A DNA stretch of 64,000 bases from a phage: assembly GCA_017686895.1 (NCBI GenBank), contig GCA_017686895.1_4521.1; one strand, 5' to 3'. Position 1 is the stretch's first letter; each line of letters opens with the position of its first letter. The position numbers were made by a program, and so were the translations under genes. Positions 1 through 47,100 of this stretch are shown here, piece by piece. The notes below the pieces were generated by a model. That model ran no database searches. It saw only the letters and a program-made list of their open reading frames with translations, and was not told the origin of the DNA.

Positions 1-432
1 GAAATCTGTAAGAACGAAAATATCGAAATCGCTGATATGAAAGTTGTTGCAGCTCTGGTTAAAAAGAACTTCCCGGACTTTCGTCGCACAATCGGCCAAT
101 TAGACCAGTACTCGTCTAAAGGTGTTCTTGATGCAGGTATTCTGTCTATCGTAACTAATGATCGTGGCACAGTCTCTGATGTTATTGAAGCAATGAAGAA
201 CAAAGATATCAAACAACTTCGTGCATTAGCTCCAAAATATGCTGCAGATTATTCATGGTTCATCGATAAATTAGTTTCAGAATGTTACGACCAAGTTGCA
301 CCTGGTAAAAGTATTATTTCGCTTTACGAAATTGCAGGCGAAAATAATAAGTTTCATGGACTAGCAAGTAATATTGAATTACATGTTATGTATATGCTTC
401 TTCAACTGACCTGTGAACTGACTTGGAAATAA
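1..432 (+). CDS. 44: Clamp loader large subunit gp44, C-terminal part (5' end upstream of window)
   Basis: Open in frame from position 1; C-terminal sequence ([11 protein letters not shown]...[11 protein letters not shown]...) matches recalled T4 gp44; followed by 62/regA/43 as in T4. Confidence 0.85.
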
Positions 433-42645: not shown

Positions 42646-43305
42646 TTATTTAGCCCGCCCTAATATCCTTGCTGCTTGGTTGCATATTGCAGCCAAGCGT
42701 TCTTCATTTAGCACATCCGATCCCTTATACCAATACATAGAAACAGTTCCCGCATATATGTTATCCAAATTGAAGTAAGGACAACTATACATATACGCCA
42801 GTTCCGGAGTTTTTGATTTGGTAGGTAAGAAAGCAAAATCTGTTTTAGAAGTAAAGTGAAGTCCACTTAAATGGACCGAATATTCTGCTGTCGTTTTATC
42901 AACAGGAAATCCTCCCATAGATTTTTCAGTTACTGTGCTAGGTAACTTACCTTCATACGCAATAAGGTCGACGAAATAATTTAGATTTTTAGGTCTGAAA
43001 GAATACACCGAACTAAAATCCGCCCTTGATGTGACGTGGACTATTTGTAGTTGTTCTAAAGCCGCAGATTCAAATCGTGTATTTCTTTCTTTTTGAATTA
43101 CTTCTGTGTAAGTATCATATTTCGACCTCACGTAATAATCCATAAAAATATTCCCTTTGTACCATATTAGTGCCATTAGGAACAAAAGAACTACAACAGC
43201 AACTCTTGAAATAAGAATATTTCCAGAGGCGTTATCTTTGAAAATGCGGTCTAGCAACCCAAATAAAATATCACTAGGCGAAAATGATACTTTTGGTGCT
43301 GCCAT
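42646..43305 (-). CDS. t: Holin T
   Basis: Starts MAAPKVSFSPSDILFG (T4 T: MAAPRISFSPSDILFG); start placed at the second ATG after the GGAGG SD. Confidence 0.9.
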   Translation of the reverse strand: MAAPKVSFSPSDILFGLLDRIFKDNASGNILISRVAVVVLLFLMALIWYKGNIFMDYYVRSKYDTYTEVIQKERNTRFESAALEQLQIVHVTSRADFSSVYSFRPKNLNYFVDLIAYEGKLPSTVTEKSMGGFPVDKTTAEYSVHLSGLHFTSKTDFAFLPTKSKTPELAYMYSCPYFNLDNIYAGTVSMYWYKGSDVLNEERLAAICNQAARILGRAK

Positions 43306-43324
43306 ATTACCTCCCATTTATCAA

Positions 43325-43332
43325 TATTTATA
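43325..43332 (-). promoter_or_regulatory. Late promoter TATAAATA for t
   Basis: Exact consensus on the minus strand between gene 38 stop and t start. Confidence 0.55.
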
Positions 43333-43350
43333 ATTGAGAGGTATTATCGT

Positions 43351-44130
43351 TTAAATCCAGGAGCCGTAGATTGTGCCTGTAGCACCCCATGACGGTGAAC
43401 TTCCGAATACTGCTCTGCCAGGAGCACCACCGCCAGATCTAGATAAGTGATTACCCCATCCATCTCCGCCACGACCTCCAGCATCACCGCCATTGCCTCC
43501 GCCGAATTGGGAAGTGTAACCGGCCCCGCCCGGGGCGTCATAACTAGCATTACCACCCGGCCAATTAACGCCACCTCCGCCGATGCCAAATGGTCTACCA
43601 CCACCGCCACCTGCTGTAGCATTTGGCGCCCAGCTATTCTGTAATGACACTGCACCACCTCCGCCACCGCCTGATGCAATAACACCATAGTTCCAAATAC
43701 GAAGTCTTCCGCCGATATCATTTTGGATTACATCGCCACCATTAGTGCCTGGGTTTCCGTTTACAGTACCGTTACCACCTCGTCCCCACATATGAACTCC
43801 ACCATGAATATTCAAAGTAACATATTCATTTGGCGTATCGCCATACATAAAGAATAATGGAACATCTTTACTATATGATACTAAATTTCCAGTGATATTA
43901 AACACTATAGGTGCACTACCTGCCTCAAAACATCTATCTCGGAACCATTGACCATTGAAGTTATGGTCTGCTCCAAGTGTGTGAATAATCTCACGAGACC
44001 GACCAGCAAATTGCGACATTGATACCGGTAGTCCCAATCTTAACTGTCCAGCCGCTGCAGACATCAATCGCTGGCCTGTTTCAGCCACTGCTGATGTTCC
44101 AATCCAACCAGGAATTCCTACTACTGCCAT
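43351..44130 (-). CDS. 38: Tail fiber adhesin gp38 (T2-type, glycine-rich motifs)
   Basis: 259 aa with repeated poly-Gly blocks ([39 protein letters not shown]); immediately downstream of gene 37. Confidence 0.75.
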
Positions 44131-44140
44131 AAAAACCTCC

Positions 44141-44156
44141 AGGGCCCGAAGGCCCT
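44141..44156 (-). other. UUCG-tetraloop hairpin between genes 37 and 38
   Basis: On the minus strand AGGGCC-TTCG-GGCCCT, followed by SD GGAGG of gene 38; no U-tract. Confidence 0.5.
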
Positions 44157-44159
44157 TTA

Positions 44160-47100
44160 TTATAATAATGATTTAATTAATGCTTTCAATTCAGCAATTT
44201 CAGATTTCAATTCCTTGATTTCGTCAGTATGCTCGTTGATAGTAGCAGTATTTAAACCGATAATACCGTTATAGTTTAAACGAAGTAAGCCGGTCTCTTT
44301 ATCTTCAGAAACAAGTTCAGGTAATACTTCTTGAACTTCCTGAGCAATTAAACCTGCGGACGGTTTAACTTCGTCTGTAACAGAGTTTTTAAGCAGATAA
44401 GTATAACCGCCCAATAGTTTAGATTTCTCTTGGGCATTCTCTATAAGCTTAATTTCTGACTTACAACGAATATCAGAACGAATATAAACGTCGTTAACAT
44501 CGATGTTATCACGAACATACATACCTGCATTACAGTGGAAGTTAACATCACCGAATGTCTGAGCTAAACCAGGTCTAAAACTAAACACACCTTGGCCGTT
44601 TGCATATGCGTTGAAAATACCATCGTTTTCCCAAAGCAAACCGGTATCGTTATCTCCCAGTACAATACACGGCCCGGCCCATGCAGGGTCACCGCCGCCT
44701 GCTGATACTCTGCCGCTCTTAAGTAAGCTAGGGGCATAAAAAACACCATTATGATGGAATTCATAGATGGCTTGGGGGTCAGAACCGTTTTCCTGGTTAC
44801 CTACACGAATAATACCTTGTGCCCAGGTATTAGTAATGCGTTGCATACCAAAATCTACGCCGGATACGTATCCTTCGTTAGTAATACCGGATTTTCCTTT
44901 AATAATAGGATAATAACTATCATTACCGACATTACCAAAATCTACAAATATAGGAGCTTCTTGGCGCCATTGGTTAGCCCAGTCACCGCCCTGGTGTGCG
45001 GTCCATTGTGTACCGTTTATATGGAGGCGGTCTCTATTAAAATTAAATGTTCCTTGGCCTTGAGGAGAAAGCGATATTTCACCGTTAGTTGTTATGTATA
45101 CACCGCCTTGTGTAATGTAACTGTAAAAACCTAGACCATTGTCGGCACCGCCTTTACCAATATACCAATTATTGGCCCCGGCCGTATCAGAACGAATAAA
45201 TGATGAATCACTGGCCAAAGGAGGATTAAGAACTATTCCAGCAGCATCTTTATTAATCCAAAGAGTGCCGGTCATCGTATCACCTTCTTTGGCAACACGA
45301 GTAGCTATTGCGTCGCGAATATTAGTTACGTCGCCTGCAGAAGTAAACGTTTTCCAAATATCCGAGAAAATATTACCATTACGAGCAATAGCAGCTTCAC
45401 CACCACCGACCAGAACGTTATCTGGGAAGTTAACAGTACCGTCTTGATTAAAACGAGATGTATGTCCTTGAGTTCCGTCTTCTTTTAAATGATGAATAAC
45501 AAATGTGCCTGAATTAATTTCAGTGCCTAAAGACCAAACGGCTTTACCATTTAAAAACTTCTGTTTAACAATAGGATAATATTTGCTTACAGCATCGTCA
45601 TCGATTTCCTGGAAAATAGGAGCCGCTTGAGCATATTGAATATCATAACCGCCGGCACCCGCTCCATGGCCAACAAATTTAATATAGCCGTTCGCAGTGA
45701 TCGTATTGTATTTTGATTGTAAATCTGGAATAGTAACTTTACCAGTATCTAAAGCCATACTAAACGGGCGAAGTGGACCGATATCGCCGTGTTTACCTTC
45801 ACCGTAAGCAGTTGGAATAATATGAAGACTATCTTCTGAACGTCTAAAAATAGCTCCATAATCTGCGTTCCAAATACGAAGAGCATTCACTTCTCCAGAT
45901 GAAATTTCACCTGTTGTGTGAACTCCTCTATCTCCAGCAGTAACACCAGATGATTCAAATGAGCCATTAACGTTCATTTCTACTTCGCCAGTAGTAAGTC
46001 TTTGAATATAGCTCATCCAGCTAGTTGCATCAGAAATTTCCATAATGTTTTTACGGATACCTCCGCTTGGATCAACAAACGTATTACCCCAAACTTTAAT
46101 ATCCATATTATCAACCGAGCTGTATCCTGTTGTGTTGCCTCTAAACATTAGTGTAGAAGAATTATTTCTACCATCTATATTAACAGAACCGCCAATAACA
46201 TCAATATTACCAGGAGTAACCAACAAACCGCCATGAGTATTAATGTTTGTGGTACCCTTACCACGGAAATAGTGATGATAGTTACCGCCTTGATAATATC
46301 CCAAAAGAGTCTGACCATCTCCAAACGCGTTATTATCGTGATATGTCACAACAGTAGCAAGAGCATAGTTTTCAGTTGGAGGAGTAGTTAAATCGGCTCC
46401 ATTAGTAGAATATCCAGCTACAAATTTTCTTAGGCTAGTTGTTTCGCTAGGATTAAATAAAAACGTTTTTGTTCCATTATTAACGCTGAAATAATATCCG
46501 TCTTGATGCCATTTAAATCCAGTATCATTATCCCCAAGAACAATAGAACCTTTACCTAAGGTTGAATATGTCATAGGCCCTGATTCCATACCTACTGCAA
46601 TCGAATGGCCTGCTTGAAAACCGCCGGAATAAGCAAAAGATAACATATAATCAGTAGGGGTTGAACCAGAATACCAACTGATGCCGTTGTTTTCACAAAT
46701 TTCATGGAGCATTGCGGCCGCTGGGTCGGTACGTACAACACGTAAATTATTTTTATCTGTATTAGAATTATTATTTGCTAATGAATAGATGTCATAATCA
46801 CCTGCCTTCTTCCCGTCTGTAATGACTTTGTCAGTCAAAATCTGAGGAGTTGACATAGATTTCCATGCCGATACTTCAGGTGAAATAAATTGTCCACTGC
46901 CTGAAAATGCATAGGTGCTTTCGCTACCAGCTGCGTAGTCTTGAACTCTAATATTAATTACTTGTGTAGTTAATCCATCATTAGCAGGAGAAAAAATGAT
47001 TCCACGTTCACGGTCAGCTGAATCATGAAAACGAACATGTGATGTACCTGAACTTTTTGTAATAAGTTCTCCGCCTTCAGTCATAATCTGCCCAGCGGCA

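Follow-up and report, generated by a model that had tools for sequence, protein, structure and literature searches.

Gene 38 of a Mosigvirus encodes a glycine-rich adhesin of the T-even gp38 family, predicted to cap the long tail fibre and to bind OmpF

In phage T4, gp38 (NP_049864.1) is a 183-aa chaperone that acts outside the virion, and gp37 binds the receptor itself. In T2, K3, T6, and S16, gp38 is present in the virion at the tip of the fibre and is needed for adsorption (PMC3157838, PMC6851490). Since virions of T6 gene-38 amber mutants look normal and yet have lost adsorption (PMC3157838), gp38 of this second kind probably acts as an adhesin rather than as a requirement of fibre assembly. 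Its docking, a polyglycine-II (PGII) lattice, and hypervariable receptor loops at the distal end are established for the family (PMC6851490, PMC12892980) and, in S16, three highly conserved tryptophans of gp38 fill three equivalent pockets of gp37 (PMC6851490). The receptor of PP01 is OmpC (PMC12892980) and RB51 requires OmpF (PMC3157838). RB51 takes OmpW in place of OmpF as its receptor once gp38 carries the substitution Q206L, and the opposite exchange restores OmpF (bioRxiv 10.64898/2026.04.02.716166).

[quoted passage not shown] The 12 kb around the gene are 98% identical to Shigella phage Shf125875 (Mosigvirus), and the gene order is 35-36-37-38-t-asiA, of which 36-37-38-t-asiA is as in T2. 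The 259-aa product matched PF05268 (Phage tail fibre adhesin Gp38) from end to end (profile positions 1-218 of 218; E = 3.8e-83; 279 bits, the cut-off being 25), PF21721 (Gp38 N-terminal domain; 8.7e-16), and PHROG 2056 ("tail fiber protein; host specificity"; 2.2e-106). [quoted passage not shown] The first-pass annotation had called the protein an adhesin-type gp38 and not a T4-type chaperone, and had named alignment with T2/T6/K3-type gp38 as a check. These profile and PDB matches uphold the call, as does the E value of 1.9 against T4 gp38. The alignment itself was run and gave clear matches, with identities of 48% to T2 (E = 1e-44), 65% to T6, and 57% to M1, and the T4-type alignment that was to count against the call was not found. 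Coordinates of the features are collected in Table 1.

Table 1. Features of the gene 37/38 region, in window coordinates
Feature	Coordinates	Strand	Basis or remark
Gene 37, long tail fibre distal subunit, 1078 aa	44160..47396	minus	PHROG 1699 (E 0)
Predicted mature gp37 tip, aa 949-973; predicted gp38 docking surface after cleavage	44478..44552	minus	DVYIR^SD motif
Intramolecular chaperone of gp37 (105 residues, aa 974-1078), with predicted auto-cleavage	44163..44477	minus	PF13884; analogy with S16
C(UUCG)G tetraloop hairpin in the gene 37/38 spacer, AGGGCC-UUCG-GGCCCU	44141..44156	minus	Followed by RBS GGAGG and ATG
Gene 38, 259-aa receptor-recognizing adhesin	43351..44130	minus	Stop codon 43351-43353; Pfam and PDB sequence matches
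N-terminal gp37-attachment domain (Gp38_N), gp38 aa 1-45	43996..44130	minus	PF21721 over aa 1-42
Central beta-helix domain, gp38 aa 46-115	43786..43995	minus	AF2 pLDDT 91-96, strands 48-115; superposes on 9v85 and 6f45_D
Polyglycine (PGII) sandwich receptor-binding domain, gp38 aa 116-240	43411..43785	minus	Conservation profile; identical to RB51; fold match to PP01 RBD
Variable loops in the PGII domain, gp38 aa 122-130, 160-173, 183-200, 203-209, 223-232			
Q208, OmpF/OmpW switch position in gp38	43507-43509	minus	Equivalent of RB51 Q206
C-terminal strands closing the beta-helix, gp38 aa 241-259	43354..43410	minus	Modelled strands 241-255
125-aa ORF overlapping gene 38 in the +1 frame, rejected as a gene	43344..43721	minus	Shuffles, stops, substitutions, Pfam

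Glycine makes up 65 of the 259 residues of gp38 (25%), 13 of them in aa 1-110 and 52 in aa 111-259 (35%), and forms runs of six (154-159), five (174-178), four (184-187), and three residues (210-212 and 233-235). We derived a conservation profile from an alignment of 111 sequences, i.e., the window protein and 110 database homologues. Across these, the glycine blocks were invariant or nearly so (G116 R117 G118 G119 G121, G131-132, G154-159, G174-178 with R179 P180 F181 G182, G212 G214 G215 G218 G221, and G235 G238), as was much of the C-terminus (A240 V241 G243 P246 W248 G252 I254 Y255 G256). The highest column entropies fell between the blocks, at about the five segments listed as variable loops in Table 1. 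The block pattern is therefore evolutionarily conserved, far beyond chance composition, and the profile confirms the earlier description of poly-Gly blocks split by short variable segments. Two hallmarks of the family, a full-length match to the adhesin profile and Gly motifs alternating with hypervariable C-terminal segments, are present in gp38. By analogy with S16, the PGII domain may comprise about ten Gly-rich motifs alternating with the variable loops.

An AF2 model of gp38, built on the 111-sequence alignment, had a mean pLDDT of 86, with low values (41-70) in the N-terminal 45 residues. Using Foldseek, the model was matched to 9v85_C (PP01 RBD; E = 2e-26, target TM 0.91, rmsd 1.4 Å) and to 6f45_D (S16 gp38; E = 1.5e-20, TM 0.79), and the PDB fold search returned nothing at E < 1 beyond 9V85 and 6F45_D. 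The predicted structure has the three-domain fold of the adhesins, i.e., an N-terminal helical attachment domain, a beta-helix, and a polyglycine-II sandwich, and superposes on the S16 and PP01 proteins (TM 0.76-0.91) at sequence identities of 44% and 62%, respectively. The receptor of S16, like that of PP01, is OmpC. Features predicted to be common to window gp38 and these two proteins are a PGII sandwich bearing loops at its distal end and an N-terminus that docks on the cleaved gp37 tip (PMC6851490, PMC12892980).

The neighbouring fibre gene has a matching layout. Window gp37 carries a Peptidase_S74 domain (PF13884) at aa 974-1029 (4.5e-12) and a DVYIR^SD motif at aa 969-975. The same motif was proposed as the auto-cleavage site of the fPS phages by analogy with S16, in which the intramolecular chaperone (IMC) comprises 113 residues (PMC7917993). 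T4 gp37, in contrast, has neither Peptidase_S74 nor DVYIR^SD and carries Collar and fibre repeats. A gp37 with a Peptidase_S74 end is the fibre layout expected where gp38 serves as the tip adhesin. With the gp37 stop at 44160 and the gp38 start at 44130, gene 38 lies directly downstream of a gp37 whose chaperone is predicted to be cleavable, which is the arrangement of the adhesin type.

In the mechanism that we propose, the gp37 trimer would fold aided by the intramolecular chaperone at its own C-terminus, which would then be cut off after ...DVYIR (gp37 aa 973) to expose a hydrophobic tip. One gp38 would dock on the tip of the trimer, i.e., as a predicted 1:3 cap, via its N-terminal three-helix domain (aa 1-45). 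The remainder of gp38 would form a short beta-helix with two long excursions, and these would build a three-layer polyglycine-II lattice out of the conserved Gly blocks. The variable segments would be loops at the distal end of this lattice, contacting the extracellular loops of an outer-membrane porin, which for the window allele would be OmpF, and reversible binding by the long fibres would then trigger engagement of the baseplate.

From the sequence of its loops, we predict with high confidence that the primary receptor of window gp38 is OmpF. Over residues 83-259, a stretch with every Gly motif and every variable loop, the protein does not differ from RB51 gp38 (100% identity), and Q208 is the equivalent of RB51 Q206. 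The protein thus has both marks of the OmpF subgroup, i.e., loops like those of OmpF-dependent phages and Q at the switch site. RB51/RB68 gp38 (ACP31167.1, OmpF-type, in the same 90% cluster) has the same architecture and gene context as the window protein and is 91% identical to it overall; however, it is 2 aa shorter, differs in the N-terminal attachment domain, where it keeps all three tryptophans, and comes from a Tequatrovirus, whereas the window phage is a Mosigvirus. Four further phages with gp38 93-96% identical to the window protein are OmpF-dependent by experiment: Bas47 (AlbertHofmann, a Mosigvirus; 95.4%), whose ompF dependence was complemented (PMC8594841); fPS-2 (95.8%) and fPS-90 (93.0%), which use OmpF and the LPS core (PMC7917993); and FL33 (94.6%), which uses OmpF (PMC12032242). 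Their loops are those of the window protein; the C-terminal half carries 1-5 exchanges, among them I183L and R220W, and residues 22-37 differ. Loop by loop, identity was 90-100% with fPS-2 and Bas47, 29-44% with T2, and 6-44% (mostly <25%) with T6 and M1. T2 gp38 (BBC14865.1, 262 aa) has the family, length, domain order, Gly blocks, and a link to OmpF in common with the window protein, and the loops of the two are recognisably related, one of the compared segments being AASLKNSYPTNGS. However, overall identity is 48%, the beta-helix domain is 36% identical to T2 as against 89-93% for T6 and M1, and T2 also uses FadL. By sequence, window gp38 is closer to T6 and M1 in its N-terminal and beta-helix parts, and its loops are those of the RB51/RB69 OmpF subgroup and not near T2. 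The earlier suggestion that host range is likely to be set by the variable segments is in line with genetic and structural studies (PMC3157838, PMC6851490, PMC12892980, bioRxiv 10.64898/2026.04.02.716166).

In the attachment domain, W7, W20, and W36 of S16 gp38 align with positions 9, 22, and 37 of the window protein, which keeps W9 and has L22 (44065-44067) and S37 (44020-44022) in place of the other two tryptophans. The set of three tryptophans, a common feature of this domain and not a strict definition of the family, is therefore incomplete here. Codon 22 is TTG, as compared to TGG in all nine close relatives, and codon 37 is TCA, again in place of TGG in relatives. Among the 111 homologues, position 22 was W in 109 and position 37 was W in 93 and Y in 12. 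Of 748 phage records, two (ECML-359 and TH41) had the S37-type N-terminus and none had L22, and one metagenomic relative (P0016) had S22 together with S37. The gp37 tip before the cleavage site was identical in five phages with or without the docking tryptophans; accordingly, a search for covariation of the gp37 tip with the variant gp38 N-terminus, in the 20 residues before the cleavage site, found none. With two tryptophans lost, gp38 may bind gp37 less tightly or in a somewhat different way. A bolder idea, tentative and on balance improbable, is that three-Trp/three-pocket docking is not required and that this phage, ECML-359, TH41, and the S22/S37 relative form a small lineage with a relaxed or altered monomer-on-trimer interface. 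The last residues of gp37 and aa 1-37 of gp38 follow the Gaprivervirus ECML-359, the rest of gp37 follows the Mosigvirus Shf125875 (98-100%), and aa 38-259 of gp38 are identical to PECP20 and also follow RB51. These mosaic affinities indicate a recombination patch across the 37/38 junction, at about 44020-44200.

Four other readings of the locus were weighed. Gene 38 occupies the position of T4 gene 38, between genes 37 and t and under the same gene number, and near-identical genes are labelled "long tail fiber assembly chaperone/catalyst" in several GenBank records, so the product might be a non-virion chaperone that aids gp37 trimerisation while gp37 itself binds the receptor. However, the two sequences are unrelated: BLASTP against T4 gp38 (NC_000866) gave E = 1.9, no aligned piece being longer than 14 aa, and T4 gp38 has no Pfam match at all, whereas window gp38 matches the adhesin families. 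Window gp37 also ends in a Peptidase_S74 chaperone, predicted to be cleavable, where T4 gp37 ends in a receptor-binding needle, the T4 record itself calls the "gp38" of the T2 subfamily unrelated, and the chaperone labels are inherited annotation rather than test results. We therefore give the chaperone reading practically no weight. The same holds for the 125-aa ORF in the +1 frame as a genuine overlapping gene. It is longer than in 97.8% of synonymous-codon shuffles (mean 75 aa, sd 21; 2.2% reach 125 aa) and the frame is open in 7 of 12 relatives, but p = 0.022 is not significant once corrected, this being one of five alternative frames tested, and stops break the frame in the other five relatives (FL33, JS10, JS98, VR5, and ECML-359). 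Substitutions fall mainly at third positions of gp38 codons (45 of 58 in VR5 and 52 of 70 in ECML-359), which are second positions of the +1 frame, each altering its amino acid; over the same 126 codons, the +1 frame thus carries 47 and 55 changes in VR5 and ECML-359, respectively, as compared to 8 and 12 in gp38. The ORF had no match in a Pfam search, and its V/A/L-rich composition is the product of GGN read as GNG. Since GGN shifted by one base gives GNG, which is never a stop, long +1 frames are to be expected in gene 38, the Gly-rich half of which has 55% G+C in a 37% G+C genome. The shuffles, the stops in relatives, the substitution pattern, and the Pfam result all bear out the initial view of this ORF as an artefact of the GGN repeats. 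A 65-aa antisense ORF (43447..43644) was likewise considered and rejected, its length being that expected from shuffles (65 vs. 57, sd 20), with no Pfam match.

The remaining two readings accept the family assignment and are somewhat less remote, yet we consider both very unlikely. In one, the adhesin primarily binds a receptor other than OmpF (e.g., OmpW, FadL, Tsx, or OmpA), or else requires further receptors besides OmpF. The single substitution Q206L redirects the same allele in RB51 from OmpF to OmpW, and single loop changes can alter the receptor; T2, with its related loops, uses FadL besides or in place of OmpF (PMC3157838); and according to Trojet et al., FhuA and the full LPS core are further requirements of RB51 and RB69, so OmpF may not suffice (PMC3157838). 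On the other hand, every loop of the window protein matches RB51 exactly, the Q at the switch site included, all four of the independently typed phages above depend on OmpF, and the LPS-core dependence of this group has been ascribed to short tail fibres or indirect effects (PMC8594841). In the other reading, gene 38 is a crippled copy that has lost two docking tryptophans, so that its product would not attach to gp37 and the phage would be defective, or else L22 is a sequencing error. The near-universal W22 (109 of 111) beside the absence of L22 from the 748 phage records would fit this, as would the lack of a compensating change in the gp37 tip and the fact that the exact protein is known from one contig of one E. 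coli assembly. Against it, S37 occurs in the plaque-forming isolates ECML-359 and TH41 and S22 with S37 in the metagenomic relative, and a variant N-terminus is thus viable; moreover, the ORF of gene 38 is intact, substitutions relative to its relatives are mostly synonymous, and leucine at position 22 is still hydrophobic. A functional, OmpF-binding tip adhesin accordingly remains the reading that we prefer.

The 37/38 hairpin is conserved in Shf125875, Bas47, ECML-359, T2, and T4, and its folding energy was not unusual compared to shuffles (z = -0.85). Perfect C(UUCG)G hairpins number 13 in the window (including those at 44141-44156, 1375, 29078, 35585, and 48118). Since the 37/38 copy is one of these 13 and is conserved in both T2 and T4, it is a known intercistronic feature of T-even phages. 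Downstream, gene t (holin, 42646-43317) has its mechanical ORF start at 43317 (MGGNMAAP..., 223 aa); a second ATG at 43305, preceded by GGGAGG, gives 219 aa as in homologues. The T4 late-promoter consensus TATAAATA lies at 43325-43332. In fPS-90 (locus L007, 801-897), the annotated holin CDS starts within gene 38, with an overlap of 40 nt, and this start call is probably over-extended.

The database entries for this family also deserve comment. The exact 259-aa protein is NCBI EHH5496362.1, "receptor-recognizing protein [Escherichia coli]", from a 170,199-bp contig, and belongs to a 123-member 90% cluster that includes the gp38 of RB51/RB68 and of FL31. Relatives of this gp38 carry the name of Salmonella enterica or even of Bacillus cereus in the database (P0024, P0131, and others), so such entries under bacterial names are phage sequences within bacterial assemblies, or contamination. 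One 303-aa protein from an E. coli assembly (P0077) joins Peptidase_S74 and GP38 domains, apparently through a read-through or a frameshift that fused the C-terminus of gp37 to gp38. Adhesin-type gp38 is still entered as "long tail fiber assembly chaperone/catalyst" in KM407600, PQ572755, MH992122, HQ829472, OR525701, and others; this label is a name carried over from T4 and is unfit for the adhesin type.

The family, the fold, the role of the loops, and the OmpF/OmpW switch in the same allele have all been published, and the identification made here is correct but already known. The sole unusual detail of this gp38 is the loss of docking tryptophans; if the protein still caps gp37 normally, a relaxed interface would perhaps ease exchange or shedding of the adhesin. 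Phages of four genera, Mosigvirus, Tequatrovirus, Dhakavirus, and Gaprivervirus, carry the same OmpF-type allele at 93-97% protein identity (loci L003-L013), which indicates that the adhesin module moves horizontally across the T-even genera. A receptor call such as OmpF, made from sequence alone, is useful for the prediction of host range and for the design of phage cocktails.
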